Positions 1 through 35,739 of a stretch of DNA of 64,000 nucleotides are shown here, one piece after another. The translations under genes and the position numbers were made by a program. Within the stretch, counting starts at the first letter, position 1, and each line of letters begins with the position of its first letter. The stretch is from Cyanidioschyzon merolae (lineage: Eukaryota). The notes under the pieces were generated by a model. The model did no database searches and was not told where the DNA came from. It saw only the letters and a list, made by a program, of their open reading frames with translations. The stretch is from NCBI GenBank assembly GCA_000091205.1, contig AP006490.2. One strand, written 5' to 3'.

Positions 1-1345
1 CCCCCATTCTCCATCATCCTCATATTTTTATCTTTCTTGTATATCGAATTATCTTTCTGTATTTACCGCTTTTTATTAAAGATTTTTTGTTCCATTTTTT
101 TCTATATCTTGGTTTTTAGATTGCAGAATAGATCAGTGCCGGGCGTTGCTATTATAACGGATTTCGATTTTGGTACAGCTTCTTAGGTATAAGGCAGGGT
201 TTTTTTAAAGAATGTGCTCTAATCTACGTAGTAATTGGAGCCAAGCTCTGCCTGCATTTTCATAGCACCTTTTTGCATGACTCTTTTGTCACCCTGCTTT
301 GTCTCCTTAATAATAGAGTACTTTCCGGCATGCTCCTTATATCAACTCTTTTGGCTCTCTTCTTTCTAAATGATATTAGACCAAAAATTTACCATGTTAT
401 AAATCGTTGCTCTGTACTTATTAGCACCCGTTCTAGTCTTTATATCGACTATGATTTGGATGCTTTTTCTAGGGGCGAATCCTTTTCTGTAATTTTTCAT
501 GGGATTAATCATATTTCTGTTTTCATGTCTTAGATGTAGTTTATTCTTGATTATCACTCTCGCTCGTTTTCTCTTCGTGTTTTCTCTCCATGTTAGGTTC
601 GCTGTCTTGTACCTCTAATTGTACGCCTTTGCTTTTTTTTGTGGGCATCATCATACCTTACGAGGTTCTAATCGGCAATTTTCATATGTTTACACTTTTG
701 ATAGTGAATCTTTCCTTTATCGTTCCTGTGCTTGAGAGGAAATCTCGAGCCGCTATAAACCAATTTTGGCTTTTTCCGCCCAGCGAAAATCTGGTTAACG
801 TATCATATACTGTAGCAATTCTCCCGCGACTTGAGCGAGTGTATCCCATTTGGGGTACAGGGTGCTTCCCTCCGATCGAATCTCGATTGCGCGCAAATCC
901 GTTCATGAGCATATCCACATACGAAACCGATAATCTCTCACTTCGAGCATATTTCGACGGATGCCTTTGGCACCTGAGAGCACCCATGGAATTCTCAACG
1001 ATCCATGCACCTGTAGAGTTGATCGCATCTTTTTCAATCGGACCGCCTCGGATGCTGTAGCCACGGTTGGTTCTTTTCTCCAGTTCATTTTTTTGACGAC
1101 AAATGTTTCTGACTGGATTTCTCTTTTGCGGAAATCCTCTCTCTGCAAGGCACTCCGCCTTCCCTATTGGTGCTAAGATTTCGTTCTTGGTCCGCATATC
1201 AAAACAGCCTCCCCCTGGATCTTTTTCGGTTCGGAGAATCCTACTACGAATAATACTCGTAAAAAAAGTCGCAAAGTGTCTGCAAGGCATCTCAGAGTTG
1301 GTCTCCAGTATCAGCTCTCCCCCTTCTTTGCTTCGCAGCGCATTC

Positions 1346-2954
1346 TTAGCAGGCAACAGCTATAGCATTCACGCGACTATCTTTCAGAATACGTGCTGCA
1401 CTTGTCCATACGCGGTACAGTCCTTCTGCATATGGCATGATACCTTCCGTGCTGTCAGAGCCGAGCGCTGATCCCCATATCTTGCGCAAAAGTTCAACCC
1501 GCGCAGGCCACAATACAGCATGTGCCACAGTGTGCGATGCATAGGTCCCGTAGCAACTAACAAGAATTCCGTCTACCACAAGGCGCCCTGAGCGCGTCAG
1601 CGGCGCATAGAGGCCATCACTCGTAACGAGAGTGTCAATTGCCACCACGGGGTCCGGCAGGTGCGCAGCAATGTCGAATAAGGCGTCGCCTATGCGGATA
1701 TCTTCTGCGAAAACCGCTTCACCTACAGACGTCTCCAGTTCGAGGATCTTCTGTATGTGCTGCTCTTTCTCATGTGAAAGACTCGACACAGCTGTCATTT
1801 TGCGGCCCGGGACTCTCGGGTTCTCGTTCATCCGGTACACCAGATGCTGCCTCGTCAAGCGCAGCTCCTTCCCCGAACGCGTCTTGATCAATAGGATTTC
1901 TGCTGTGGCGCGAGTCTCTTTGTGCAACCACCCCAGAACTGTGTCCTCGACCAGTCGCCCACGTGAATCGACGCCGATTACGGTCATACCCGGGCGCAAT
2001 TCGCTTATCCGCCGCGTCTTGCCAAGACCATCAATAAGCACCGAAGCACCCGCTGGGAAGCAGACCGCAGCGCCGCCACCCACAGAAACCTGTGTAACAT
2101 TTGCTGTCGGTGAAGGCGTCACTGAGACGGTAGGCGTAGGCGTTGCTGAAGTTGTCGGTGTTGGTGTCGGTGTCGGTGTAGGTGTGGGTGTGGGTGTTGG
2201 CACAACTTTCGGAGTCGAGATCGCCACGAGACTCGCTCCACTTGGCAGGATACTTGGAACGCTACTTGTAAAATTGGTAGAGATCTTCGTCACGTTGGAT
2301 ACGAGCGCGGTAGGTGCTAAGATAGAGATATTGTAGCTTGCATTCACTGCTGATGTTGCGCTGAATACACGTTGAACGTCGAGGCTGCTTCTCTCGTACC
2401 AGTCGGCGAACCGCGAGGCTATTGACACGAAGATACTATCGCAGTTATCCGACACAGTGACGTTCGCTCCAGTTCCATTCAGCTTGGTTTCTAAGTTATC
2501 CTGGAGAACGACCGCAACATCAACACACACGGTCTTGTTCACCACACTGACCACCGCAGAGAATGCAACACCGGCTATTGCCGGGGTAGGCGTAGGTGAC
2601 GGTGTTGCCGTCGGCGTAGGTGTTGGTGTAGGTGTCGCAGTTGGCGTTGGTGTCGGTGTCGCAGTTGGTGTTGGCGTCGGTGTAGGTGTCGGTGTCGCGG
2701 TTGTCGTAGGCGTAGGCGTTGGTGTTGCAGTTGGTGTAGGTGTCGGTGTAGGTGTCGCGGTTGCCGTAGGCGTAGGCGTTGGTGTTGCAGTTGGTGTAGG
2801 TGTCGGTGTAGGTGTCGGCGTTGCAGTTGGCGTAGGCGTTGGTGTCGCAGTTGGCGTAGGTGTTGGTGTCGGCGTTGCAGTTGGCGTAGGCGTTGGTGTC
2901 GGTGTCGGTGTCGCAGTTGGCGTAGGCGTAGGCGTTGGTGTCGCAGTTGGCGTT

Positions 2955-2989
<35 letters not shown>

Positions 2990-4909
2990 TGCAGTTGGCG
3001 TAGGCGTAGGAGTTGCAGTCGGTGTTGCAGTTGGTGTCGCAGTTGGTGTTGCCGTCGGCGTAGGCGTAGGCGTAGGCGTTGGTGTCACAGTTGGCGTTGG
3101 TGTTGCAGTTGCCGTAGGCGTTGGCGTAGATGTTGGTGTCGGTGTCGCGGTTGCCGTAGGCGTAGGCGTTGGTGTTGCAGTTGGTGTAGGTGTCGGTGTA
3201 GGTGTCGGCGTTGCAGTTGGCGTAGGCGTTGGTGTTGCAGTTTGCGTTGGTGTCCGAGTCGGTGTCGGTGTAGGTGTCGGTGTTGCAGTTGGCGTAGGTG
3301 TAGGCGTTGGTGTCCCAGTTGGCGTTGGTGTCGGCGTTGCCGTCGGCGTAGGCATAGGCGTTCGTGTCGCAGTTGGCGTCGGTGTAGGTGTCGCAGTTGG
3401 CGTCGGTGTAGGTGTCGGCGTTGCAGTTGGCGTAGGCGTTGGTGTCGGTGTTGCAGTTGGCGTAGGCGTAGGCGATGGTGTCGCAGTAGGCGTCGGTGTC
3501 GGTGTTGCGGTCGGCCTAGGCGTAGGTGTTGGTGTTGCCGCCGGTGTCGGTGTAGCGGTCGGCGTAGGCGTCGGTGTTGCGATGTATAATGTGAAGAGGT
3601 CGTTAAGGGGACCTGTGCCGCCTTCGCCTCCGAACAGCACCGGGTCGTTTTGACCGGTATTCCAAAGAACTGCATCAGCTCGCGGAGGTGGAAGCGTTGT
3701 ATTGCTTGTCTTGTTAAGCTCGCCGTAACTATAGGCTCCATCCGTTGTATTGTCACCGTCTACCCAAGTCCATTCAAGACTCGTAATATTGAACGTCCAC
3801 AGGTCGTTGCAGAAACCGGATGAATAACCACCGAAGAGATACAGAGTATTTGACGAGTCTACAAATCCAGAGGAAAAGGATCTGTACCCCGGAGTGTTAC
3901 TCGATGACGGCACTCCTTTCTCGCCGTATACCGACCCATTCGAACCAACACTGTCATTTCCAGACATCCAAGTCCATTCTCTGGAGCTGATATTGTACAG
4001 CCATAAATCATTGAGACCGCCAAATGTTTCAATCTGTCCGAAACCTCCAAAGAGCCAAAAGTTCCCATCAAGGTCTCGCCACGATGTGGCTCCGTAACGT
4101 CCCGCGGGATAATTGCTCGGCGATGCCTGGCGAAACGCACCATAGCTTCCGGAGGGGTCCAGCTCTTGGGTGCCACCTATCCAGCTCCATTCGTTGGTCA
4201 CTGTGTTGTACTGCCACAAGTCACCGTAAACAGTTCCATTAGGACCAGATCCACCAAAGAGATAAAACTGGTCATCCAAGCCAACCCAGGTCGCCGGTTG
4301 GTAACGACCGCCAGGCGTGTTGCTTGAAGACGACTTCCCAAGAGGACCATATGTCGGGGAAACGTTGGTCTCGTTGGATCCCTGCACCCATGTCCACTCG
4401 CCCGACGATACATTATACATCCACATATCACTATAGCCCGAGCTCAAATTACGGCCTCCAAATAGCCAAAGGTTTCCGTTGCTGTCACTCCATGCAGCGG
4501 ATTGCGTCCTCGAAGGCGGATTGTTGCTTTTGTTGGGAACTCCGAGGTAGCCGTATACCCCTGCAGAGTTGAGGGATGCCGAGCCTCCAACCCAGGTCCA
4601 AGAGAACGTGCTCAGATTGTAGTTCCAGAGATCACCGAAGACGCCGTCCGAGTTGCCACCACCAAACAACCAGAGCACTCCGTCAGCGCCGGTCCAGAAG
4701 GCCGCACCGTACCGCGCCGGAGGCACGTTGCTGGTGTTCGGCACACCCTGAACACCGTAGCTACCTGAACTGCCGGTAGAGTTACTGCCACCGATCCAGG
4801 TCCATAAAAAAGTATCTTCGGAGGACAAAACTCCACGAACTGCGTGCGTTCCCGACACAACCAATACTATAACGAGGAGTTTCAATATAGAAAAATATCT
4901 TTTTCGCAT
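1346..4909 (-). CDS. Secreted multidomain protein: signal peptide, six kelch blades, a roughly 330-aa Pro/Thr linker, a roughly 125-aa N-glycosylation-rich domain of unknown fold, a second PT linker, and a C-terminal hedgehog-type Hint/Hog autoprocessing domain
   Basis: The ORF 1346..4954 starts at GTG. The first ATG at 4907-4909 gives [23 protein letters not shown], which is signal-peptide-like. Six repeats of the kelch/galactose-oxidase type follow, e.g. [33 protein letters not shown], each with W..W and YG..G signatures. The C terminus reads [43 protein letters not shown] ... [21 protein letters not shown], which aligns with the hedgehog Hint module (CFPG...LSPGDRVLA...[21 protein letters not shown]). 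Confidence 0.8.
2570..3595. repeat. Imperfect hexanucleotide/dodecanucleotide tandem array, (GGYGTNGGYGTN)n on the + strand, which encodes the (TPTPTA)n linker on the - strand; a shorter copy lies at about 2090-2225
   Basis: The ggcgtaggtgttggtgtcggtgt-type unit is visibly reiterated for about 1 kb. The translation is an almost pure T/P/A tract. Confidence 0.85.
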
Positions 4910-5707
4910 ATAGGATACGAAAGGGGTTCTGCACCAGTGAAAAGAAAGCGCCACTGAGAGAAACGAGTTGCTTAGAATCTCCAGGGATAGGAGAGACTCC
5001 AGCTGCTGGTACTGTTGTCACTGCTGTCTCCGTCCTTACCACCACCACTCTCAACGAAGTATTCTGAGGTAAGCAGCACGGGAGCGCGTCAAGCACCGCC
5101 TTCTGAATGATGCAGATCTGCGCACGGCGCTCCCGAAACGGGACATTTCTGGCATAAACGGACAAAGATATTTTGCAGCGTCTTCTACCGAGTTTCATGA
5201 TGGCGCTCTCGTAATGGCAGTACAAGATAGCAGTCTACGCCGCAGTCGTGTTTCAGATACACATGCAGAGTCCAAATATCGAAAAAGGCTAATGGCGTGC
5301 CCGTCGCACATTCGGACCCGGCCCGCTATGACGCAGTACGAACAACTCCCTCTTACTGCACGCCATCTGCATATTTGTTGGCATCCCGTCTAGGGGGAAG
5401 TTTGGTGTCCAGATACCCTCAACATTGGATTATGGGCCGCCAACCCGGACTGGAAGGTTGCGTGCATGCACGTGCGAACTATATTACACAACTAAGATCC
5501 TCATGGAATCAATATACCAATAACTGAAACATAATTTAGTTCTGTGTTCGCGCGCGGGGCCGTACGGATAGCTGGCGTCAACGCAGTGGTTCATACTGAA
5601 GCACTTGCTGAGGCACGCGTCGAGGTCGACACCAATACCGACGCACCTGGAGACGCAGTTGCAGTCGCAATAACGGCACTCGGAGTCGGCGTAGGTCTAA
5701 TCAACAA

Positions 5708-7036
5708 TCACTCGTTGCTGATGCACTCCTGATCAGAGCGGCAGCAACGCACCTTGTTCACAAGGTTATCCGAAGCGATCAGGTATGTCCCGCACTGCTT
5801 CGTAGGGTCCTTGCACACACAGAACGACGGCAGCAGCGCCTGTTGTTGCTGCTGTTGTTGCAATTGCTGCTGCTGCTGCTGGTTGTTGTTGTTGCTGAAG
5901 GGGTTGTACGTGCAGTTCTGCGTCCTGGCGTTGCAGCACTCGGGCCCGCATGGAATATACGTCGAGTTCGATACGTTCCCGGTCGTGCTGCTCAGCGAGT
6001 TCGAGATGTACCCATACGCCTGACACACGTGCTCAGTAACCGGCTGGAAGCACTCGTTGCCGAGCTCCAGGCAGCAACCAGCCTCCAGACACTGCTGCGG
6101 TGAGTAGCTCATGCGCAGCGTCCCGTGCTGCTCTCCGTACACGAGCGTGTTCAGCAGACGCACAAACTGGCTACTGTTGATGTTATTGTTGGTCAGCTGC
6201 TGGTTCTGATTCAGCGCGTTCGTGCACGGCTGGCGCTCAAACTCGCCCACCGCGCACGTCTTCTCGGGCTGGAAGCAGTACGGGTTCGACGCAAAGTCGC
6301 TCTGCTGCTTGCCGTTCTGCACCCACTGGTTCTGCGCCTGCGAGTCGTAGCAGCAGCCCTGGGCATAGTAGGTAAACTGGTTGATACCCGCGTTGCCGTA
6401 CGGCTGGTGATGCGCTCCCGGTGACGGGCAGACGGGAACCGTTGCCTGCACCTCCTGCAGCGCTACAGAAGCCTGCGGTGCATGGTTGATGTCGTAGTAG
6501 CACCAGGGTGCCAGGATGCCGTTCGCTGTGGGCTGCCAGCAGCATCCCGGTATCGCAGAGCACTCGTCGGGGTAGATATAGCTCCAGCCGCAGGGGACGC
6601 GCTGCGTCACTGGAACAGCGCTGCACGCCGATGAGACGCTCTTCAGGGTGCACGCGTTCGTCTGGGAGCTGAAGCAGCACCCGACTTGCTCGCAGCGTCC
6701 TGGTTGATGCACTGTCCTGGAGATCCGCAGAGCTCATTGGAGCAATGGGGTGGGTGTCCGCGTAGGTTTCGGTGTTGGAGTAGGAAATGCTTTCCTCAAC
6801 GCATAGACATCATTGATAAAGTCACTGCCGCTCGTGTTTATGTATCCATTTCCAACAAATACGATCGGATCAGTCCTACTAGTGTCCCAGAAAGCTGATC
6901 CATAGCGAGTACTTGGTACACTATTCGGGCCTGACTCGCTCAATGCCCCATATACTGCTAGAGTATTCACTACCGAGCTTCCATTAATCCATGCCCGTTG
7001 ACCCAGTTTGATATCGAATACCCACAGATTGTTCAA
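5708..7036 (-). CDS. Paralog of the kelch/PT-linker family: one kelch blade, a PT linker, then trefoil(P-type)-like cysteine-rich modules and a poly-Q/N tract. The frame is interrupted by a single in-frame TGA at about 6734-6736, so this is a possible pseudogene, a read-through, or an assembly error
   Basis: ORFs 6734..7036 and 5708..6712 share one frame: ...PTPKPTRTPTPLLQ * ALRISRTV HQPGRCEQVGCC.... The segment NNLWVFDIKLGQRAWINGSS...RYGSAFWDTSRTDPIVFVGNGY...NDVYAL...PTPTPKPTRTPTP aligns with the last kelch blade plus linker of the upstream gene. CSAVPVTQRVPCGWSYIYPDECSAIPGCCWQPTANGILAPWCYY fits the trefoil pattern C..R..CG...C...GCC[FWY]...PWC[FY]. Two more GCC[YL] modules follow. A possible signal peptide (MKRTEVVIDIAIAMTYFV) is out of frame at 7033..7239. 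Confidence 0.5.
5838..5895. repeat. CAG/CAA (CTG/TTG on +) trinucleotide tract encoding NNNNQQQQQQLQQQQQQQ
   Basis: The sequence ctgttgttgctgctgttgttgcaattgctgctgctgctgctggttgttgttgttg is visible on the + strand. Confidence 0.85.
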
Positions 7037-7382
7037 ACGTCTGCAAGTTCGCCTCTATTGCCGTATCCTTTATGGCAAAAAGAGTTACAGATTACCCAAA
7101 TAAACGCGCTCTGCCCTCTTGAACGACCACAGTTAGCAGTCTCTGGCGCATTCGATACGAAGTAGGTCATAGCTATAGCTATATCAATCACTACTTCAGT
7201 ACGCTTCATGACTTGCGAAGCAATTTTGGTTCTCCACATCAGGAGGAGTGCCCACCCATCCGTTCAATATCCGATCGTGACTGTGGGATGCCGTCTCATC
7301 GGTACGCTGTTGCTCCCACATTTGTCTTTGAAGCAGCGGTCTGCGCTTTGAAGGCGCATCTCATTTTCATCACTAACAAACC

Positions 7383-8488
7383 TTAGACAGGGGCCAAGAT
7401 AGTCGACTTGAGGCCTCGCCTCCGTAACGCCTGGTCGATCAGATCAAGACTCAGTTCGTAAAGCTGATCTGCCTTGTCGATTTCGTACGTTGGTTCAATA
7501 ACCTGCGGTTTCGTCTTCTCTCGACCTTCGGTATATTTGCCACGCCACTGATAATACGAGCCCGAGTCCGAGAACTGTCCCTGGGTCGCCACTTCGGCTA
7601 CGCGGCGGCCGGCCTCGTCATTCGGAAGGTATTGCCGAGTGATATACTTTTGAAGAATCGGAAAGAATACGTACCGGAACCAGCCACGCTTTTCGCGGAA
7701 GAGGTTGCTGTCGGCGACACATCCCGGAAAATCGCCACAGAGGTCACCCCGTCGCGGCCGTATCAATGACCGAGCGTCTTCATTGATAAAACGTTCGCGG
7801 CTTTGGCGTCTTTGAAAGCTGTTGTGGGCTCAAACGGGCCACTGTCCACCATGCCCGTCGTCTGCGGACCGAGCCCCGCGGCTAGACCAGATAAATCCCC
7901 GAGACGGGCCTGCGGGAGGATCTTTCCCGGCAGCGAATTCGGCGAGTGGGTCTGAGTCGTCAGAAACACAATGTGCCTGCGCGATATTTTCATCTTCGGC
8001 AACAGCTCCCGACATAGAAGCAAATGGCTCAGATGGCATACCTGCATGGTTTTCTCGATGCCGTCCACCGTGAAACGCGGTTTCTTGTCCCGCGGATGCC
8101 ATATTGTGGCATTGCAGATCAGGGTATCCAGGTGATCGACGCGCGCCACACTTGACAGCTCTCTTACAAACTTCAACACAGAGGCGAAATCAGCCATATC
8201 ACAATGCAGCACGGTATAGGCGTCCTTTAGAAGGTTTACGCTGTTTGCTGCGCGCTCCGCCCGGTCGACGTCACGACATGCCATGACGATGTGCCAGTTG
8301 CCCTTGTTGATCAGAGCGTGAGCTGCATACAGACCGACTCCAGCGGACGCGCCAGTGATCACAGCGATCTGTGATTGCTTCGGGCCCATACGAAGATGCA
8401 GCGCGTGGTGCCGGCGCGCCCCAGGCAAACGCAGCACTACCAAGGCAGCAGATGCTGGCAATGGCGACGATGTCCCGCTGCGAAGCAC
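7383..8488 (-). CDS. POR: Light-dependent NADPH:protochlorophyllide oxidoreductase (LPOR) homolog. Its reading frame is broken by a 1-nt frameshift at about 7763-7766 and it lacks an ATG-initiated transit peptide, so it may be a pseudogene or an assembly error
   Basis: The 5' ORF 7763..8488 carries IAVITGASAGVGLYAAHAL, GNWHIVMACRD, AYTVLHCDMADF, LICNATIWHP, CHLSHLLLCRELL, LGDLSGLAAGLG and FKDAKAANVLSMK. These match the POR motifs KWHVIMACRD, DSYTVMHLDLAS, LVCNAAVY, LGDLRGLAGGL and YKDSKVCNMLTM. The 3' ORF 7383..7766, in another frame, continues with GDFPGCVADSNLFREKRGWFRYVFFPILQKYITRQYLPNDEAGRRVAEVATQ, which matches [47 protein letters not shown]. The first in-frame ATG, at 8387-8389, sits directly at the Rossmann fold. 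Confidence 0.75.
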
Positions 8489-10347
8489 CCGTCAGGTGCG
8501 GTACGCAGCAGGAACGGTGCTCGAGTTGAAGCGGGCGTACAAAGAACGTGCCAGTCCATTTGCAGGGGACAAGAAACGAGCAGGGCTTGCGTTTTCTAGA
8601 TTTGATTTTTTTCCGGTGCGAAGGCTGCCAATGACCTCAACAACAATACAAATTCGCTTAAGCATGCGTATCCATTCAAAAACCTCTTTTGCGTAGCTGC
8701 ACGAGTGATCGTCCGTCCATTGATGCAGATGCCAACCTCAATCTCCCGTAGACTGTCTAACTTTGAGCACAACCCACACAATCGCCGAATGTCCTTTTCA
8801 GAAACTAGGCAAGACTCCCATTTTTCTCGAGCAACAACCTCGTCAGTGCTAGTCGCTAAGCGCTCCGCAGTGCTACGCTCAAAGAATACGAAGTTCGCAG
8901 ATGAACTTCGACAGAGCTCGCCAACGGATACCGTAGAGGAGGTATAAGGGAATTTCCTCCGGTGGTATGTTATTTATGGAAGCGCCTGCACGTCAGTTGG
9001 ACACGTGATGTGTAGGGCGGGTCGCTCGCCACTACTGTGGAAGGCCGGCGACAACGTTTTTCTTTTCAAAGGCATTTGTTGTTGACTGTGTCGCTTCCGG
9101 GCTCGATGGACGGGTTAGGCTCCTCAAACTAACCTTATAGAGTAGATCAAAATGCAGTATGTCCTTTTGTCGGGTTCCTCGATCGTTCCAGGCTAGATGC
9201 AAGTCTCAAGCTTCGTGGAAGATATGGACGCAACATGTGTGCTATGCCTCTGCCAAGATCACCAGAGCTAATCGACGTAGCGGGAGCCAGAAGTTAGACA
9301 AAGACGGTAGCATGGCAATGACTTGAGCTCTCATCAGTGCCAGCCCATGACGTACGACAGAGGCACAATTCAGGTCAGTTCCGTATTCCAGTGTCCGTGC
9401 ATGATGCATAGCAAGCCTGGGGAATAAACGTATATCCATGTTCGAGAACACTACCGTGCCTATTTTGGTTACGATCAATACAACTGAAGAAACTCTTATT
9501 GAGTAGAATATTGCATACCTTATCCACACAAGTCTAAGCCGCAGAGAAAGATACGCTTTTGATATGAGCATCGCGGGGTTTCGTGCCAGGCCCTGCATCT
9601 CCACGTATGTCAGGGCGGTACTGCGATGGGCAGTAGCGTCGGCTCCAGCGAGAGAGCCTACAGCAAGAGATCGTTCTACGTGAGTTTGCGATCTACGATA
9701 CTTTATGTTTTGCGGCAGTGCGATGCGAACACGCATGTGCCAAGGCGGGGTGTCGGACACGTGTCCTTCATCTACCTGAGTAGCGTCGCGCGCAGTGGAT
9801 GCATTGCGCTAAATGAGCGCAACTGGGTGATCAGGCAGTCAACTGACACGATGCGCATGCCGTTGTTGAAGGGAAACGCGATCTCGATCAGAAGCGTGTT
9901 GTTCAGCTGCAAAAAGTTGGATTTCCGTTGAGGACATAGCAAAGTGTAGTTTTCTGTTCGTTTTTGTTTCAGCCCTCGAACAAGTCTAGTCAAGTATTTT
10001 TTCGGAGTATATAACAGAAGCGTTCAAAGAGCGTTGTTTTTCAAAAAAAAACTAAAAAAAGGAACCTATGAAAAAACAAGTAGACGATCCTGGAGGCCCA
10101 GGGTCGTCGGCTGCTAGAAAAAAACAAAAAACATTGCCGAGCCCAGAAGAAAAGGAGGATGACAAGGACCGAAGGGGGTAGGTCCTACGTCGAAGGCGGC
10201 AAGAGAGACAACAATACAACGAGATGGTAGTAAAAAACCTGTCGTCTTGGACATATTAAGGATCCGTATAGGGAAAACTTACATGTCGCTATCAAAAAAC
10301 GTGTTGCGTCATACTCCAAGAGTATTGTCAAGGCGCCGTCTGGACTC

Positions 10348-12440
10348 ATGCATTTGGTGACGGAGATGTATCGCGACGTTACGAACATCGTAACGGTCGA
10401 GATTCCGGACGAGTTTTTCGACAAGACCTTTTTTTTTCGTCACATGATGCACGGTACAGGGGAGGCGCGGAAGGAAAATGTGCTAGTAGATGCCTTTCAC
10501 GAAAAGCATCCCTTTTACAGATTCGAGGGTACTCGGCACAAAGGTGACCGGGATATTTACACATACAGGCCGATAAAGTACCTCACGAATCTGAAGAACC
10601 ATTTCAGAGTGAATCTCGAACGTTTCATGATCTGCGCCGTGTTTGCACTCTATCCGGGCCTATCTCGCAATGCAAAATGGACGATGATCAATGGCATCAC
10701 GAACGATCGAAACTATGGAAATGGGATCGAATTCGTCGGAGAGAAGGCATCAAACGAAAGCGCGAGCGAAGCTTCCGTAATCCGTGCGGTTATAGAAGAG
10801 CACCGTGCGGTACTGTGGTTGGCGAATCCAAGAGACAAGATATCAGAGTTGAAAAAAGATAAGGAAAGATACTTTCGCCTCGTCCTGCGCTACTTTGTGT
10901 TTCTGGACCGAGAACTTGAACGCAAAGCGGAGATGAAGCTGATTGAGGAAAAAAATGAAGAGTGGGAGAGACGGAAGGCTATCCTTATGGGGAAGCGCTT
11001 CAACGTGGTTCTAATGAGCAACATCAAGTCACATTTTGTTACTATTGACTCCGGCGTCCTTCACGGCATCATGCAGGAGATCAGTCCCGAATTCAATGAT
11101 AGTATGGACGACTTCACCGGTGAAAACCGGGAGACGTACTGGAAGAGTAACTTCCAGTACAAACGTCTCAAAGTCAGCAAGCAAAAGGTATTCACTGGGA
11201 TGATCGAATCAGATGGAGTAGCCTTGTGTGTACACTATCGGCGGTTGAAGAAAGATCGGCCAGTCCCTTTCTCGGCTGCGCCCGTCACGAAGGATGAAGA
11301 AATGGAGGAGACTGGTCTTGCGACGCAGAAAGTGCAGGATAATGTCTTTCTCGTTGACGCGGCGAAGGTGGAGAGGAGAAGGAGGCGGAACTTACGACGC
11401 AGGAGGTGGAGGATAACGACCTCGTCGTTGGCGTGACAAAGGATGAAGATGAGAAGGAGGCGGATCCTGTGACGCAGGAGATTGAGGGGCACGAACTTGT
11501 CGTGGACGTGACGATGGATGGAGATGAGAAAGAGGCGGGTTCTTCGACACAGAAAGTGCAGGATAACGACTTTGTCGTTCGCGCGGACCCTGGGAACCCA
11601 ATTATCATAACCATCGCTCTACCCAAGCGTGCGGAAGATTGTAACGACTGTAACTTGCGTCAGAAAGACATGCGTCTGTTGAGATTCTCGAGAGCAAGAT
11701 ACTATCGAAAATCCGGTATAATGAATGCTAGGAAGAAAATTGAGACGTGGAATTCATGAATGAAAGAGCACCTGGGAGCTATGTGCGAGGTGACGAGTCG
11801 CGTAGCGGACTTGGAAGCTTTTCGGAAATTCGTGGAAGTTCGTGTTGCCCATTGGGATGCACTGTGGGAGGAGTATACAAAGCCCCGGTGCGCTCGTCCG
11901 CAAATGAATCTATACGGCGGAAGGCAGCTGGCGTTTGCCAACTTTTTCAATCAGTTGGGCGCCTTCAAAAAGGACAAGAGTCAAAGACTAGTAGTAGCGT
12001 ACGGAGCAGTGCGCTGGGCGCCCAAGAAAGGCACTACGCCAGCTCTAACGACAAGAACGTACAAGGAGTGCGCAAGGCGTTTTGTTCCAATACCTGTAGA
12101 TAAGTTTCGAACATCGTATACACACCATGAACTGGGGTGTACACTTGAGAGAGTGGAGATGGAAAAGTGCCAACGGAGTCCTGAGAATAAAACAAAGTAC
12201 GGACCGCTGACGGAGGAGGAAATGGAAAGGAGGGCAAAAGTGCGAGGATTGCTTGCACTGGTGAGTACATCCAGTGATTGCAAGAAACGTATGGAGTTTA
12301 GTAACCGAGACTTTAATGCCACTATCAATATATTAGGAGATGTGCGATGCTGGAGAAGAGACCTCCAGAATAGTCAAGATGGAACTTTATTGGACAATCC
12401 TGCAAAGCCGCGCTATATGAGAAATAGTTGGAAGCACTAG
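10348..12440 (+). CDS. TnpB/Fanzor-like RuvC-fold nuclease gene (OrfB_Zn_ribbon type). It is disrupted by one frameshift at about 11360 and one in-frame TGA at 11757-11759
   Basis: Three ORFs make up the gene: 10348..11436 (a genuine ATG start), 11406..11759 and 11760..12440. The C-terminal part has [21 protein letters not shown]...C...C, which matches the TnpB V..VdP.yTSq.C..CG box. It ends with [12 protein letters not shown], matching the RuvC-III D[RA]DxNAAxNI motif. The N-terminal part has a RuvC-I-like [12 protein letters not shown]. The protein is about 690 aa if joined. Confidence 0.65.
11285..11600 (+). repeat. Four tandem copies of an 81-bp unit encoding a 27-aa acidic repeat ([VT]xDE[ED]xxEAGxxTQKVQDNxF[LV]V[DR]A) inside the Fanzor-like gene
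   Basis: The four copies are [50 protein letters not shown] (in a shifted frame), [25 protein letters not shown] and [25 protein letters not shown]. The frameshift lies between copies 1 and 2. Confidence 0.8.
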
Positions 12441-12628
12441 TAGGTGGCCGGTCCAAGAATACTGGGAGGCGTCTGCACATCAGTTCAGGACGCTATGTTT
12501 AGGGCGCGATTGCTGCCACTACTGTATTCCGGTGACGTCGTTCGACTTTTAAACGGCGTTCGCAGCCGCTTCGGTCTAAGCGTGTGAATATAATTCCCCT
12601 GGGAAGCGCCAGTTGTGGACACTTGCAG

Positions 12629-14008
12629 ATGGCAGGGTCACGAGCGAGCAACCTGAAACAAACCCGCGAAAAGCGCCAGCGCGCTGTTGCGTCTGCTTCT
12701 GCTGCCGCTGCTGTCCGCTGGGAAAGCATCGATGCGGCACTCTGCGAGCAACGGGCAACAGCGGTCACTCGTAGCCTGATCTGGGCCTACCTTATTCTCG
12801 CTGTGGTACTCGTTGTGTTCCCTGCCCTCTATACGCACGCGGAGGATAGTGGCCTGCTCTCCAGTGCGCCGCGGCTATTCGCCATGGCCGCAACAGCGAT
12901 CACGCTCGTCAACATGCTACTTGTTTCAACCAGCGTCGTCTTCATCGGGGCACGCGTGTCTGCAGCACGTGATCGGCTTCGCCGGTGGGCTCTCGAGCAA
13001 TCCCGTACCCGAGCGGGCGCGGACGACTCAGAATCGGTGGCGGCTGCGTTGGCAGCGCTCGAGCGCGAAGTCATCGGAAGAGGCGACGCGCTGCGGTTCC
13101 CCCTGGTCGCTTCACTTGGCCTGATAGCACTCTTCATGGCCATTCGGTACCTGCCGCAAAACGTTGTGCAGCTGCTCATCGGGATGTACGTTGCTCTAGC
13201 CTCGCTGGTCTCGATGACGAGTATCCTCTCGCCGCTGCTGGACCTGCTGGAGCACCGATTGCGGCAATCGCCGCGCACCAAACCGTTGGGGATGCTCATG
13301 GCGCGGCGGTTTGGACTTTTCAGGGATACGCTCTCGGTACACGGTCGAGATGTGCTGGGCATGGTGCTCGCGCTGCCGCTTCTCTACTGGTATCGGCAGT
13401 CGAGCGGTCTCGGCGCTGCGATCCTGAACAATATTTTTGCGGCAAGCCTGGGAGTTGCGGGCATCGACCTATTGGCCATTGGTGACTTTCAGACGGCTGT
13501 CGTGCTGCTTGTCGGCCTTTTCCTCTACGATATTTTCTGGGTCTTTGGCAGCGAGGCCGTCTTCGGCGACAACGTGATGGTATCGGTCGCGCGCGGCATC
13601 GACGGTCCCTTCAAATTCGTCTTCTACCGTCTGCGAGCGCGCCCTGATGCAGCGCGCGATATGTCGATGCTAGGACTTGGTGACCTGGTGATTCCCGGAC
13701 TCTTTGTGGCCCTGATGTTGCGCTTTGACCACCGTCATTTGGCGAAACCTTCACTGGCGCCCAAGCATCCCTATTTTTCTGCTACATACATGGCCTATGC
13801 ACTGGGTATGGTGACAACGTTCGTAGCGATGGCGGTGTCGAAGGCGGCGCAACCTGCGCTGCTTTACCTGGTACCGTTCTGCCTGGTGGCACCGCTGATG
13901 CGAGCCTGGCGCCTGGGCGAGCTGCGCTCGCTCTGGTATTACCGCGAACACGATGCGGAGCTTGATTCGCATCGCGAGCCGCACCAGTCGTCATGCAACG
14001 ATACCTAG
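12629..14008 (+). CDS. Signal peptide peptidase (presenilin-type intramembrane aspartyl protease, SPP/HM13 family)
   Basis: YDIFWVFGS carries the YD motif, MLGLGDLVIPGLFVALMLRFD carries GxGD, and QPALLYLVP carries PAL. There are multiple TM helices. The ORF track start at 12584 is GTG; the first ATG is at 12629. Confidence 0.85.
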   Translation: MAGSRASNLKQTREKRQRAVASASAAAAVRWESIDAALCEQRATAVTRSLIWAYLILAVVLVVFPALYTHAEDSGLLSSAPRLFAMAATAITLVNMLLVSTSVVFIGARVSAARDRLRRWALEQSRTRAGADDSESVAAALAALEREVIGRGDALRFPLVASLGLIALFMAIRYLPQNVVQLLIGMYVALASLVSMTSILSPLLDLLEHRLRQSPRTKPLGMLMARRFGLFRDTLSVHGRDVLGMVLALPLLYWYRQSSGLGAAILNNIFAASLGVAGIDLLAIGDFQTAVVLLVGLFLYDIFWVFGSEAVFGDNVMVSVARGIDGPFKFVFYRLRARPDAARDMSMLGLGDLVIPGLFVALMLRFDHRHLAKPSLAPKHPYFSATYMAYALGMVTTFVAMAVSKAAQPALLYLVPFCLVAPLMRAWRLGELRSLWYYREHDAELDSHREPHQSSCNDT

Positions 14009-15633: not shown

Positions 15634-17841
15634 TCATTCGGGGGTGTCGCCCTGCCAAAGAGCTACGGCGCGTCCAGCTATGTTTCGAACGAGGTGGTCA
15701 CGAATCCAACCCTCCATTCGGGGATACGGAACTAGTTTCGCAATATCTCCCACGAATCCATACAAGAGCAATGTTCTTGCTTCATCTCTGGAAGCTCCTC
15801 TTGACTGCAAGTAAAACAGTTCGACCTCGTCCAAATGGGCAGAGGCAGCACCATGGGTGCAGGACACATCGTCATTCAGAACCTCTAGGAACGGCATGAC
15901 GTGCACACGAGAACCATCGCTCAGAAGCAGACTCCGGATTAACTGATGCGCATTGGTGCCGTCCGCCTCTCGCTCCACGTACACTGTCCCTCGGTAGACT
16001 GCAGTGCTTCGGTCGACAACCACATTCTTGTGAAGTTGATTCGACTCACACTGAGCGACATGATGACTGACTCGAACCTGCACATCGCCAAGAGCTCGAT
16101 CCTGAAGCAAGGTCAGGCCGTTGACGTTACAAGAGGCCCGGCGGCCAACTAGATCAACGCCCATGACAAGCCGCCGCAACGCCAAAGAATCCACATTCAG
16201 ATTGGTCGCGGTGAACGAGGTTCCTTGCTCGCAACGAACTGACAGACCAGTCATGTGGTAGAAACGATGTTGGTCCTGACGGACCGACTCCGATACGGAT
16301 TGCGAGCCAATAATACTCAATTTCAGGCACGCATCGGTCTCCAGATGCACGTTGACACACTCATTCAGGAATGTGGCATCGTTTGGCTGCTGGGGCGCTT
16401 CAGGAGACGTGGCCCCTAGCGCAACAAGCCGAAAGGATACGGACGCCATTGCGCCGCGGTCGAGAAAGATTACAGTTCGAGGATTCACAGCGACGCCGGC
16501 GTCGACTACCTGGATGATTTCCATGGGGCGATCAATCGTACACCCCGGTGGCAGGTATACCACGAAAACGCCATCCCCGTCGCCAGACATTCCTAGATAC
16601 ACGTTCAAAAGGGTGAAAAAATCGTTCACCTTGGCGATGCCACTCGAATAATCGTGTGTCCGGGGCTCTTCACGAAACGGAACGACACCCAGGCCTGCTT
16701 CAGGCGGCGCGGTTCGAATGACCGATACGATGCGTTCCTGAAGTGCGCCGTCAGTGCACTCCTTGAGGTTGCCGACGTAACCTTGTTGAAGCGACGACGT
16801 GTCGCGAATCTGGGCGAGAGAGCTCAGTTCCTGAACAAGCCGGCCGTTCAGTAAAACAAATCTCAAGGGTTCCGTTTCCGAACCTTGGGTCGGCGTTCCG
16901 CACACTTGCTCCGCACGGTGAAGGGCATCACGTAGCCGCTCGAGCTGTGCGCTTGTGTACGGCTCCCGAGGCGTTCGCAGCCTAAAGTCTGTCTCTAGCA
17001 GCTCTCTGATATCGGTGAAGCGCCAGGTCTCCATCTTCCGATGCGGCAGGCGCTTCTCAGCTGCGGCACTCCCGAGACGCGCAAGTGCTATATCGCGCAA
17101 AGAGGCACAGCAGCCTGAAGTGATGTCGCTGGGTGGCGCCTGCGCCAGCAGTCTCTCCATGAAAGAGGAACTCCTCCAAAGGCGCATCGCCTGCACTACA
17201 GCAGAGAGTTCTTCCTCAACACTCTGACTGCGGGGCTGCATACCGCCAACATCCGAACCGTTCATGTCGAGCCTCGCTGAGCGTCTGACCTGCGCGGATC
17301 GACAGCGACTCCCAGCGCGTCGCTGATGAGCGCAGCTACCAACAACGGTAGCGTTCCAGCCACCTCGGAAGGCGCCAACGCGTCCTCCTGGAACAACAAA
17401 GGCAGACAGTTTGTTCTCTCTTGCCTCGATCGTAAGCATTTTATCCCCAACTAGCGCCTTGCGCAACAGTACCAAACCACGAAGAGCGCTGAAATAGTTG
17501 CACAGCCCGCGGCAGGCCCGGGGTATGCGCGTGCCCCCGGCCTGGTGGCTGCCAATCGCTGGCGGATCGCCGTTTGATCGCCGCCGTCGCTGCCACTGCA
17601 GGCACGCTGTGCGGGATGCGGCGCAGGCGCTGTGGCGCGCCTCCCACGCGTGCCATCGATCCTGCGGTGCGCTATAGGCGCTGCTGTTGCTGCCGCTTGC
17701 GGCAGGCTCGGCACACGATAGGACGTATGAAACGACCAGAATATCCGAGATGAAGTATAGGTAATGTAACTCGGAGGTAGGGTGTTTGATAGATACCTCG
17801 TCGCGCTCTGAAAAACCCAAAAAGAAAAGAAAAATGCGCAT
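15634..17841 (-). CDS. sufD: Fe-S cluster assembly protein SufD (SUF system, plastid-type) with a roughly 200-aa N-terminal extension
   Basis: The C-terminal region LIRSLLLSDGSRVHVMPFLEVLNDDVSCTHGAASAHLDEVELFYLQSRGASRDEARTLLLYGF matches the conserved SufB/SufD signature (LLLSD..A...P.LEI..DDVKCSHGAT.G.LDEE.LFYL.SRGI...A..LL..GF). The SufD-like N-terminal region includes LPHRKMETWRFTDI. The ATG at 17839-17841 gives MRIFLFFLGFS. Confidence 0.8.
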   Translation of the reverse strand: MRIFLFFLGFSERDEVSIKHPTSELHYLYFISDILVVSYVLSCAEPAASGSNSSAYSAPQDRWHAWEARHSACAASRTACLQWQRRRRSNGDPPAIGSHQAGGTRIPRACRGLCNYFSALRGLVLLRKALVGDKMLTIEARENKLSAFVVPGGRVGAFRGGWNATVVGSCAHQRRAGSRCRSAQVRRSARLDMNGSDVGGMQPRSQSVEEELSAVVQAMRLWRSSSFMERLLAQAPPSDITSGCCASLRDIALARLGSAAAEKRLPHRKMETWRFTDIRELLETDFRLRTPREPYTSAQLERLRDALHRAEQVCGTPTQGSETEPLRFVLLNGRLVQELSSLAQIRDTSSLQQGYVGNLKECTDGALQERIVSVIRTAPPEAGLGVVPFREEPRTHDYSSGIAKVNDFFTLLNVYLGMSGDGDGVFVVYLPPGCTIDRPMEIIQVVDAGVAVNPRTVIFLDRGAMASVSFRLVALGATSPEAPQQPNDATFLNECVNVHLETDACLKLSIIGSQSVSESVRQDQHRFYHMTGLSVRCEQGTSFTATNLNVDSLALRRLVMGVDLVGRRASCNVNGLTLLQDRALGDVQVRVSHHVAQCESNQLHKNVVVDRSTAVYRGTVYVEREADGTNAHQLIRSLLLSDGSRVHVMPFLEVLNDDVSCTHGAASAHLDEVELFYLQSRGASRDEARTLLLYGFVGDIAKLVPYPRMEGWIRDHLVRNIAGRAVALWQGDTPE

Positions 17842-20800
17842 AATCGGAGAACGCTGGCCTAAGTAAAGGTTTTGTCAATGAAAAAAATCGATCCTGCGGT
17901 TGGCATCGGTGGCGCTGCTGCCCTTGAGATGCTAGACGTCGTCCAGTTTGCGCATCGCTGTTGTTGCTGGCTCGAGTGGGATCTCATATGGCCTGTCTCA
18001 TTGCGTAGGGCATCTGGGTCCGGCAAATTTTGAATTTCGTGGGATCAGGTACACAAATCACCTGTTTGCTGCTACTGGGACTGCGATAAAGCAAGCGGAA
18101 AGACGTGATTCCCTGATGCACAAGTGCTGCTTCCAGAAACGCTGCGATGGGAATCGAACATTTCTCCTGAGCCGCTCGCATACCCAGGTGCGGTTCATTG
18201 GTTGTTTTGAACATATAAACGTCCTGATTCGACAGGTTGAGGGTACAGCGCAGGCGTGCAAAGCGCTCGCTTAGAGCGTGCACGCAAACCGGACACGCAT
18301 GCGAGATGAGACGGAATGGCAGTGCGCGCTCCAGGGCGTAGCGCGTTCCGCGCTCTAAAGATGCACACTCGGAGGTTCTCGCGAAAGACTGCTCCTGGAA
18401 TGCCTCCGAGTGCCACCGTATCGAAACTACTGCCATCACGGGAAGCGCCGTCCACGATTGTTGCGCGAAACGGATACGTCAGACCATTGCCCACACGTGC
18501 TACTCAAGAGTACCTCAAGACTCTGCCTAATCGTCGAGAAGCTATCGGTGCCTCTTGAGAGCCCGTCTTTCAGGGTCGAATGTTCAAGATCCGAGCTTTA
18601 CAAGCTGCTCTGCATTTTGTGGTGTCTCCACACGCATCGGAAAGGATTTGGAGTACGTGGGTGTGTGCTTCAGGATCCAGAGCACCGCCTCCTGCGACCG
18701 AGTTTCGTCCAACATCAGCGAGCTCACCGAGCGCAGATGCTGCCGCCGCCATCTCAGAAGAGCGACTGTCATCGACAATCTACACGTAAGCTGCTTGCGG
18801 CACAACGGAATCATCGATCTGTGTCTTTTGTGGTAGCCCGCAAGTGCACGAGAAAGCCGTGCTGTCTCTGAACAGCGACGCTGGCTGCGCAGATGGCACC
18901 GTAGAACGCAATTGTGACCAACCTCGCACCCAGACCGTCCGCGAACGCATATCTCCAACCTGTGTCCCTCAAGGTTGGGCGGCTCCAGGGTCCACGGTGA
19001 ATTGCTTCTTCGTCCGGCGGACTGCGCTCTCTCCCAGGGCTTGCTGTCGTACTCGTGCATCCGCGGGAGTCTGACCAAAATCATCGATCATAGACGATTA
19101 CAAATCGAGCGGTCGCCATCGTTGGCGAGGAAATCGCTTGGCGCTTTGTTTTGATCGACGGATCGTGTACATTGGCCCAGGGATCTCCATCTTCGCAATG
19201 CTGATCGGCGTCTTGGAGAGCTTCCATCACTTCATACCTGATGCAAGACCTACATGAGATATCGAGTACACGCACAGACCGGACACGGCCTCGATGCAGC
19301 CACCAATCCACAGCTACTTCGAGAGGTGGCATAACTCCGTGGCTCGGTATCCAATTTGGAGGCGTTTGTTTGGTACACAGGACGTGTTTGTCGACCAGGG
19401 ATCTCGGATAGCAAGATGGATATCGGCGTACCGGGCAGAGTCCATGATTCAGCAACTGACCTCCAAGTTCTACCAGCCACTACCAATACTATCATCCCGA
19501 GGAATTACTGGTCATTCCGTATGCTCCAGAGATTGCTGAGCCTGCCGTGAACACCCCCGATGGCACAAAATAGCGCCTATGCCGACACCGCATCGAGACA
19601 CTGCGGGTTCATCACACCAGTGAGGGCGCCGGCTCGACGCGAGGTTCAAGCGACACGAGGGCGGAACTAGCCGGTGTTCTGGTATCCAGCAGAATGCACA
19701 AAGAGACCTACTGCGTCCAACAGCGCCAGGTAGTATGCCAGGAGACCATCAAGACCAGGGCGACAGCTAGAAGCAGCCTACTCACTTCTAGCCCCAGAAA
19801 AAAAGGCCTTGAGGTCGAGCTGCTCAGGTAGGGCCACGGCAGCCGCCACCGGAGGGCACATGAAACGTGCGGCACGAGCCTGGGAGAATCGTACAGCTCG
19901 CGGGACCTTCTTCTTGCAGGGTAATCTCCCGATTACGCGGAAATATTTTCCCGTGCTCACTGGGTGTGGCGAAGCGAGAAGAAGCAGTTAAGTGGATGCA
20001 AGTTTTTTGGATGTATTCTATCATGTTTTCTGTTCTCGCTGATGAGCGCCTCGAGTGCCTCTCATTCGAAGCTACGGTACGTTCGCGATAGGAGCAGTAG
20101 CGCTCGCGGCGTTGGTCTTCTTCACCAATGCATGTCTAATTGTTTGAAATGGCTATAGCGGTACACAGCATTCGTCACCGCTTGCGAGGCGTTGGCGTGA
20201 TTACATGGCATACCGTGGACTGCCCTGTACTTCAACGCTGTTGTCTACCACATCCATGTGAGAATGGTACAGGGCGGCTTCCCGAAGCACGGGCAGGCAT
20301 CCTGAAAGTTCTCCTCTCTTTCCATTGCCATCAACACCAGGATTTGCAGCCCTTTTTACTTCTTTCTTTTCTCCTCTCTTACCTGCGGCTTTTTCTCTGC
20401 AGATCCCTACCGTCGCTCCAGTTACGTTTTCAATACTCGAAAGCAGTTGATTCCAGCGTAACATTCCCGATGACGCTGCGCAGACTGTTCCTCAAGCATG
20501 TCATGGCAGGCAAGCGTCGCAATGTACACTGTGCTTGAAATTCTTATCACCTTCGCTTACAGCCTTAACGTGTTTTTCGCATCTACGAAACTTGGCTGTG
20601 ATTAGGGTCGCCGCTAAGCTCGCTGCTCCGTCTTTACCGGGCCCTGTCCTGCGGCGCGTGGGCGCTTGCGTTACTGCTCCAGACTTGTCTTCGACGAAGA
20701 CAGAAAACTCGCTTTTGTGCTCTTTTCTTTACTGGGAGAAGTGAAGGACCCCACGTTACCGATTCTCTTTTGGGAGATAGCCTCAGCGAGTACGCGACCC

Positions 20801-34910: not shown

Positions 34911-35739
34911 AGCAGGCCCGTACAACAGCACCAACGACTTTGTCGAATCATTGAGGACGTTTTCCTGACGTCTGGCGACGCCCTTACATTAGGAAAAGGT
35001 GGTATTTCACCATTACCCTTCGTGTTCGAGCTTTTGCTTACTCTATCGGGGTAGAGCAGCACTTCATTCTTCCGGACGCTCCGTGTTTCAACTGCATCGG
35101 ATCAGTGTTCTCCATCATGAAACATAACCATCGCTCCACTGGGCGAATCGCTAAATCGTCCAGCACACGGTGACATGCTGGGGCATATTTCCTCATTCTC
35201 GTGCAATCTCTTCTTCTTCTGGGAAGATCGTCACCTACTGGCATTAGAAAGTGCAATCATTTTCAGAACAAAGGAGAGAACGATCTGGGATGTACACTTC
35301 AGAGCGTCGAGAAGGAGACAAGGCAGCGGAGCGCTTTGGTGATAGAGAAGTATAGAGAGCTCGCAATGCAGCAAGTGGCACGGAGGGCACGAGCTCTACC
35401 AACCCCTGCACTGACGAGTTCCACCAAAGGCAATAAACGCATGGAGTTCGTGCACTAAGAATTCAACGCCGCCATCTATATCAGACGATATGCAATGCTG
35501 AAGACAAGACCTAGGGGCGTGACGCGAGCCAACGTTATGAAGCAGTCTCTCAGGCTCGAAGTGTGTCTGGATGAAACCCGAAACCGATAGCATCGATCTG
35601 GTCGAAAAGTGCTGGAAGGTGGCGTCTGCGCGTGGGTATGCATTTACCCCACATTGTCGTACAAAATACTTGCGCCAATCATATGTAGTTCCCTTGCGCT
35701 TTCACCTGCTCTCTGTGGGCTATTCTTCGAGCAGTATGC

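Follow-up and report, generated by a model that had tools for sequence, protein, structure and literature searches.

We analyzed a stretch of 64,000 nucleotides (nt) that starts at the left end of nuclear chromosome 8 of Cyanidioschyzon merolae 10D (hereafter the window), and two of its open reading frames (ORFs) are exact matches to the C. merolae 10D proteins BAM79713.1 and CMH013C. About 10 kb from its start, three ORFs follow one another on the plus strand (ORF1, ORF2, and ORF3; Table 1). ORF2 and ORF3 are in the same frame and are split by a TGA codon, and ORF1 is in a different frame. These ORFs are the remains of a Fanzor1 gene, that is, a transposon-borne eukaryotic gene for a RuvC nuclease of the TnpB/Fanzor type at a nuclear locus, and it is almost certain that the locus as a whole is a pseudogenised copy of CMe-1A, a multi-copy element that has no terminal inverted repeats (TIRs) and carries Fanzor1 as its single gene. 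The family itself is already known, since it was published from the C. merolae genome in 2013. The sequence-only reading of this DNA had placed a transposon-borne Fanzor-type nuclease gene at 10348-12440 from motifs alone, and the three ORFs, the frameshift, the in-frame TGA, and the peptide strings that it quoted are all present. The interval is correct for the ORFs but too short for both the degenerate reading frame and the repeat copy in which the frame lies.

CMe-1A was described as the one Fanzor1 family of C. merolae, with a consensus of 3169 bp, about 150 copies that match this consensus at roughly 80% identity, a protein of 734 amino acids (aa), no TIR, and an undetermined target-site duplication; its 5' 635 bp are common with a separate element, TE-N2_CMe, and 'some individual elements' were reported to be still intact (Bao and Jurka 2013, Mobile DNA 4:12, PMC3627910). 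The consensus was taken from the supplementary file of that paper and was compared with the window by blastn, which aligned a 2.7-kb copy with identities of 81.5% over 9829-11362 and 85.3% over 11507-12558. The right end of the copy, ...AAACGGCG at 12558, is exactly the 3' terminus of the consensus, whose first 670 bp at the 5' end (the TE-N2_CMe-like head) are absent from the copy. Homology to 81 related loci in metagenome contigs (L001-L081) stopped sharply at 12558-12563, beyond which the flanks were unrelated; 370 confirmed stretches lie in metagenome contigs in which genes nearly identical to those of C. merolae are also present. The window copy shares with the published CMe-1A the genome, the sequence family, the 3' terminus (...GAAMGGCG), the encoded protein, and the lack of TIRs, and its divergence fits the roughly 80% reported for the approximately 150 copies. 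It is different in that it has another 5' region, two extra 75-bp repeats, and a broken ORF. The nuclear, transposon-borne nature of the locus is thus confirmed by its identity as a CMe-1A copy on chromosome 8. A host gene domesticated from a TnpB-like nuclease, for which the sequence-only reading had considered a single copy outside any transposon context, is hardly conceivable here. Its place among host genes is the only observation that would fit such a gene, whereas the multiple copies, the sharp 3' terminus shared at unrelated flanks, the match to the published transposon consensus, and the disrupted frame do not, and it was rejected on these grounds.

Codon-wise alignment to the consensus coding sequence (CDS) revealed that the frame starts at an ATG at 10068, 5' of the start of ORF1, and that the equivalent of the stop codon lies near 12500 (about 12502). 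The frame is 75.6% identical in amino acids to the CMe-1 protein, and a basic KKQK patch at its N-terminus appears similar to a nuclear localization signal. Against the consensus CDS, the frame has seven lesions in total, four premature stops and three frameshifts, so that the frameshift and the TGA noted earlier are both real but account for only part of the damage. One frameshift is connected with an acidic tandem repeat of 25 aa (75 bp), which sits between the N-terminal half and RuvC-I and varies in the number of units among copies. The array in the window contains insertions of +149 and +75 nt and is two 75-bp units longer than that in the published consensus. Since the expanded array is one base short, the frame is shifted between ORF1 and ORF2; the frameshift was located near 11303, where the +149 nt are inserted, and the break between the two ORFs near 11303-11365.

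The four stops and three frameshifts, together with the replacement of the catalytic Glu by Lys as described below, indicate that the Fanzor1 gene in the window is dead and that the protein cannot be made from it. It has to be considered whether the gene is nevertheless active, with lesions that represent sequencing errors or that programmed frameshifting or stop-codon readthrough would overcome. Although the three ORFs are long and most of the catalytic and structural motifs are recognisable, seven independent disruptions over 2.4 kb and the change of an invariant Glu to Lys make an active gene highly improbable. Moreover, the 75.6% identity to the consensus protein is typical of neutral decay, and most copies are as decayed as the window copy, with an ORF of 650 aa or longer kept in only 3 of the 81 related loci in the metagenome contigs. 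Since the seven disruptions are scattered and the genome is finished, sequencing noise was rejected as their cause.

The assignment to Fanzor1 relies on three independent lines of evidence: the near-identity to CMe-1/CMe-1A, profile matches to Fanzor1 only, and the fold of an intact family member. When the joined translation of the three ORFs (697 aa) was used as a query, 48 homologue clusters with 55-75% identity and two with 33% were obtained at E values down to 0, all of which are metagenomic. A second, word-indexed search gave close relatives only among the best 120 matches listed. An exhaustive HMMER search with a family profile detected 2553 clusters (50% identity) at E <= 1e-3, of which 409 reached E <= 1e-30, and most of the proteins were 580-700 aa in length. 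A profile built from 17 close relatives (A1) had no match in the Protein Data Bank (PDB; 177,635 sequences), and a wider profile of 43 diverse family members (A2) was needed. A2 matched only three distinct PDB sequences, namely PpFz1 of Parasitella (E 7.9e-22), SpuFz1 of Spizellomyces (8.6e-15), and GtFz1 of Guillardia (4.6e-11). The alignments paired DPGR with D-P-N of SpuFz1, vDEFRTt with LDEYKTS, and NRDlNAA with NRD, so that the DPG, DE[FY]xTS, and NRD motifs are all aligned in the Fanzor1 matches. A chance occurrence of the motifs was rejected, given the homologues at E down to 0 and the Fanzor1 profile match at 7.9e-22. The CMe-1-type Fanzor1 clade is large and has the signature RGLLWCxST...KFVNRDLNAAxNI; conserved Cys pairs are missing from it at the site of the CxxC...CxxC zinc ribbon of other Fanzor1 proteins.

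For the fold, we modelled P0001, an intact metagenomic relative that is 71% identical to the window copy. AlphaFold2 with a 113-sequence alignment gave a predicted local distance difference test score (pLDDT) of 84 and a predicted template modelling score of 0.82; an earlier model from a shallow 17-sequence alignment had a pLDDT of 38 and was not used for the fold search. Foldseek against the PDB returned Fanzor1 structures as the top seven matches (E 1.8e-16 to 1.6e-13, target-normalised template modelling (TM) scores up to 0.73). The best match was SpuFz (E 1.8e-16, target-normalised TM 0.72), next to which came PpFz and GtFz, and Cas12 variants and a Fanzor2 followed at E >= 1e-3 with TM below 0.3. 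The counterpart of the 75-bp repeat in P0001 (residues 375-469) showed a pLDDT below 50 and is predicted to be disordered. Both the recognition of the family from motifs alone and the structural check suggested by the sequence-only reading thus agree with the Fanzor1 profile, the CMe-1A consensus, and the fold of the relative.

Several results weigh against this assignment and against the delimitation of the element. Scans of the three ORFs and of the joined protein with Pfam and NCBIfam found nothing significant. Cas12f1-like_TNB (formerly OrfB_Zn_ribbon, PF07282) reached 10.7 bits (E 0.64) on ORF3, below the gathering threshold of 26.3 bits, and 12.1 bits on P0001; one distant relative gave E 0.014, and 6 of the 43 wider relatives had a match at E <= 0.01, the best being 9.6e-11. 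The profile check that had been proposed for the joined ORFs therefore failed for OrfB_Zn_ribbon and succeeded for Fanzor1 by way of the family profile. Since the curated domain models give no significant match for the window ORFs, it is the profile of the family and the consensus from the literature that carry the call. The structure was modelled on the metagenomic relative P0001, not on the window sequence. In addition, the C4 zinc finger that belongs to the 2013 family definition, D-X(125,275)-[TS]-[TS]-X-X-[C4 zinc finger]-X(5,50)-RD (PMC3627910), is not recognisable in the CMe-1 lineage. The window retains the order of this motif, with D at 11586, T-S 175 residues on (12111-12116), and R-D at 12306-12311. 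Between TS and RD there are H-H-x3-C-x10-C and one later Cys, and the wider family consensus has no conserved Cys pairs. Of the 'TSQ/Zn-finger box' proposed earlier, the TS box is thus valid and the zinc finger is not evident. Finally, the left end of the window copy is not definable from the comparison of the 81 loci, because the sequences upstream split into several multi-copy groups. The search for further copies and for element ends that the sequence-only reading had proposed succeeded for the copies and the sharp right end and not for the left end.

In SpuFz1, Mg is coordinated by D383, N385, E541, and D606 (Saito et al., PMC10432273), and in Fanzors the residue at the canonical RuvC-II position is Gly or Pro and an alternative Glu downstream is used (Jiang et al., PMC10530073). 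Among 113 relatives, G623 and E656 of P0001 are invariant, D484 is invariant or nearly so, and D725 is nearly invariant; E656 aligns to the Mg-coordinating E541 of SpuFz1. Intact relatives carry DADPGN, VDEFRTS, and NRDFNAAINI. In the window, the Asp codons of RuvC-I and RuvC-III are kept, and AAG is present at the site of the catalytic Glu, where the published consensus DNA reads GATGAGTTC. The triad with the rearranged RuvC-II site is therefore found in the family and not in the window copy, and with Lys at the invariant Glu site this copy, a member of the family by descent, is catalytically dead. These results clarify the motif assignments of the sequence-only reading. Its RuvC-III box aligns to the NRD of SpuFz1 and PpFz1 as proposed. 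Its 'RuvC-I IDSGV' was misassigned, since this string belongs to a conserved N-terminal Fanzor1 motif, HFxTIDS, which aligns well upstream of the RuvC domain, and the true RuvC-I is ADPGN (11583-11597). RLVVAYGAV, noted for having no Glu, is indeed the canonical RuvC-II position, at which Gly is invariant in the 113 relatives. The TS box had been quoted without notice of the compensating Glu position within it, which is Lys in the window. A rearranged catalytic site or inactivation had been offered as alternatives; comparison of VDEFRTS of the family with VDKFRTS of the window shows that both are true, the former for the family and the latter for the window copy.

Table 1. Coordinates of the decayed Fanzor1 gene, its element, and related remnants in the window
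Feature	Position	Strand	Remarks
Solo 3'-end fragment of another CMe-1A copy, followed by TTTGTTGTTG	8948-9076	+	80% to consensus 3073-3168
Alternative 5' head replacing the published head	9173-9828	+	Common to a minority of copies; left boundary provisional
CMe-1A copy, 2.7 kb	9829-12558	+	Consensus positions 671-3169; blastn against the published consensus
Degenerate Fanzor1 reading frame, counterpart of the 734-aa CMe-1 protein	10068-12502	+	Codon-wise alignment to consensus CDS
Premature stop TAG	10179-10181	+	Consensus Glu38
+1 frameshift	10232	+	Approximate position; consensus codon 55
ORF1	10348-11436	+	362 aa
Acidic 25-aa (75-bp) tandem repeat array	11283-11579	+	4.0 copies; Tandem Repeats Finder, period 75
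ORF2	11406-11759	+	117 aa
RuvC-I catalytic Asp codon (R-A-D-P-G-N), kept	11586-11588	+	Aligned to family DPG and SpuFz1 D383-P-N385
Premature stop TGA	11757-11759	+	Consensus Gly488; between ORF2 and ORF3
ORF3	11760-12440	+	226 aa
Gly at canonical RuvC-II position (VVAYGAV)	12003-12005	+	Family-wide rearranged site, no lesion
AAG (Lys) replacing catalytic Glu (consensus GAG)	12102-12104	+	VDKFRTS versus family VDEFRTS
RuvC-III catalytic Asp codon, kept	12309-12311	+	Aligned to NRD of SpuFz1 (D606) and PpFz1
+2 frameshift	12333-12334	+	Approximate position; consensus codon 680
Premature stops TAG	12371-12373; 12425-12427	+	In consensus frame, 3' of the +2 frameshift
Conserved 3'-terminal module	12423-12560	+	138 nt; overlaps ORF end, reaches right end, fits five helices
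CMe-1A head fragment	17701-17781	-	Consensus 84-166, 88%
CMe-1A head fragment	19393-19952	+	Consensus 22-563, 68%
Internal CMe-1A piece	35282-35512	+	Consensus 2739-2972, 72%; just upstream of CMH013C
Diverged Fanzor1-like relic without long ORF	39057-40197	+	tblastn, three pieces
Internally deleted CMe-1A copy	50534-50700; 50850-50946	+	Consensus 810-969 and 2871-2970

The CMe-1 protein was compared with the Fanzor1 structures of SpuFz1 (8GKH, 9CEU-9CEZ), PpFz1 (9CF0-3), and GtFz1 (9CER-T). The sequences are homologous over the WED/REC and RuvC regions, and they share one fold, with TM of 0.5-0.73 for the P0001 model. They have in common the Asp in DPx, Gly or Pro at RuvC-II, the Glu in DE[FY]xTS, and the Asp in NRD, as well as a conserved 3' module, non-coding or overlapping the ORF, that abuts the right end. 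In contrast, the sequence identity is only 12-15%, the 30-nt inverted repeats of SpuFz1 elements have no counterpart in CMe-1A, no CxxC...CxxC zinc ribbon like that of SpuFz1 and PpFz1 is apparent in the CMe-1 lineage, and the disordered acidic 25-aa repeat insertion is a feature of CMe-1. With TnpB of IS200/IS605 and IS607 and with Cas12f, the protein shares the RuvC core, the D...E...D triad, and the TS and RD boxes, and some members of the CMe-1 family show a weak Cas12f1-like_TNB match. Compared with them, it has about 300 additional aa and a relocated Glu, and it comes without a TnpA partner; the window ORFs are below the Pfam threshold, and Foldseek matched Cas12 and Fanzor2 only marginally.

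The 5' part of the element is variable. Of the 81 loci, 50-80 cover the region downstream of 9850, 16 cover position 9800, and 3-10 cover positions between 9100 and 9750. Leftward, most copies converge at about 9800-9850, upstream of which there are at least four multi-copy groups, and the window and the published consensus carry different heads. The head of the window copy is common to about 10 of the 81 loci; L068 and L079 share the sequence back to 7108 (7108-9828) and diverge directly after the 3' end of the element, and the head groups involve L068, L079, L007, L034, L075, L072, L033, and L080. Such a pattern would fit 5' regions that are modular, or elements that are composite.

CMe-1 shares with the characterised Fanzor1 the fold (in the intact relative), the active-site residues, and a conserved RNA-like module at the 3' end. 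In other Fanzor1 systems, the protein binds an RNA from the right end of the element, and the 3' part of this RNA, which is derived from the flank, guides double-strand cleavage that depends on a target-adjacent motif and uses one RuvC site (PMC10432273, PMC10530073). By analogy, transcription from the 3' end of an intact CMe-1A would yield a structured RNA to which the 734-aa Fanzor1 binds, and the part of this RNA that continues into the flanking DNA would serve as the guide. DNA that matches the guide would be cut by the protein at a single RuvC site, to which DPG and NRD each contribute their Asp and VDEFRTS its relocated Glu. An intact CMe-1 would thus be guided by RNA and cleave DNA as other Fanzor1 proteins do, and the copy in the window can contribute at most RNA.

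The 3' module of 138 nt occupies the position of the omega-RNA/fRNA in characterised Fanzors and is a candidate omega-RNA/fRNA scaffold. A covariance model (R1) detected it in the window with 130 bits (E 1e-25) and gave 76 matches in 82 sources. When 26 copies were aligned with MAFFT, 85.7% of the cells paired versus 37-57% with slid partners, but the covariation was not above that of shuffles, and RNAalifold on this alignment gave a weak consensus of -15 kcal/mol with a covariation term of about 0. In a model-fitted alignment of 60 distinct sequences, 82.7% of the cells were paired versus 37-54% with slid partners, none of 500 shuffles reached the covariation score, and 9 of the 11 pairs of the terminal hairpin were changed on both sides. 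Since the model-fitted alignment itself leans towards the structure, the support is rated as moderate, and the module is probably a structured RNA. An Rfam scan of 8800-12800 had no match.

These data bear on whether the copy, although dead in its coding part, persists as an RNA-only, 'ghost'-like element whose 3' module gives a guide RNA in trans to the Fanzor1 of an intact CMe-1A. The 3' 138 nt of the window score as high as those of copies with better ORFs, the module fits a conserved structure of five helices and shows some covariation, 'ghost' elements without an ORF but with the omega-RNA are reported for Spizellomyces Fanzor1 (PMC10432273), and some CMe-1A copies are still intact according to Bao and Jurka (PMC3627910). 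However, the module overlaps the coding sequence and, at about 80%, shows no higher conservation than the element elsewhere, the covariation is not significant on the alignment that was not fitted to the structure, and no intact C. merolae 10D protein is among the protein-search matches listed, which are all metagenomic. We therefore regard an RNA-only role as quite unlikely and retain the interpretation of the locus as a pseudogenised CMe-1A copy.

The DNA directly after the right end of CMe-1A is not random, as observed at 12559-12570 in the window and in 27 distinct flanks among the 81 loci. These flanks have T at +1 in 21 of 27 and at +2 in 25, and G at +4 and at +7 in 18 each; they are TTTGTTGTTG-like and periodic by 3 nt. 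The same TTTGTTGTTG-like tail follows the solo 3' fragment (9075-9084). The true end of the element may lie about 10 nt beyond that of the published consensus, or the element may prefer such targets. It is conceivable, although unlikely, that the 3' module represents an undescribed Fanzor1 guide RNA and the flank bias its guide, which by analogy with other Fanzors would direct homing to, or maintenance at, a specific T/G-rich target.

Blastn found five further CMe-1A fragments within the window. The solo 3' fragment, of about 100-130 nt, is separated by about 750 bp from the main copy, which lies downstream, and is detected by the covariance model R1 with 35.5 bits (E 3e-5); a like arrangement is present in locus L072. 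The two head fragments at 17701-17781 and 19393-19952 belong to the part common to the approximately 635-bp TE-N2_CMe. The much more diverged relic at 39057-40197 shows 27-36% aa identity to P0001 and to the joined query, lacks the central part of the protein, and represents either an older insertion or another, second lineage of Fanzor1.

The ORFs neighbouring the element are on both strands, are without introns, and encode ordinary eukaryotic proteins, including a signal peptide peptidase, SufBD, tubulin cofactor C, an E1 dehydrogenase, an adenosine deaminase, and a SNARE. Two ORFs lie less than 7 kb from the chromosome end. One is a 1201-aa ORF on the minus strand (1346-4954) with Kelch repeats and a C-terminal Hint (Hedgehog/intein-type) module (E 9e-36), and the other, which adjoins it, is a 333-aa ORF on the minus strand (5708-6712) with a Trefoil (P-type) domain. 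Positions 1-10 of the window read CCCCCATT, which resembles the reverse complement of one unit of the C. merolae telomere repeat (AATGGGGGG). This telomere-like start suggests that the Fanzor1 copy is subtelomeric, about 10 kb from the end of the chromosome.

The locus is better annotated as a transposon relic than as a gene. As a discovery it has little value, since Fanzor1 of C. merolae was reported in 2013 and RNA-guided DNA cutting by Fanzor1 was established in 2023. CMe-1A is an element without TIRs that encodes Fanzor1 alone, and most of its copies are very decayed. If its 3' module and biased flank did act as a guide RNA, this could explain how an element without TIRs and transposase reached about 150 copies, and dead copies such as the one in the window could still donate guide RNAs. 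The CMe-1A 3' module and the biased flank may thus help studies of how Fanzor-only elements spread.

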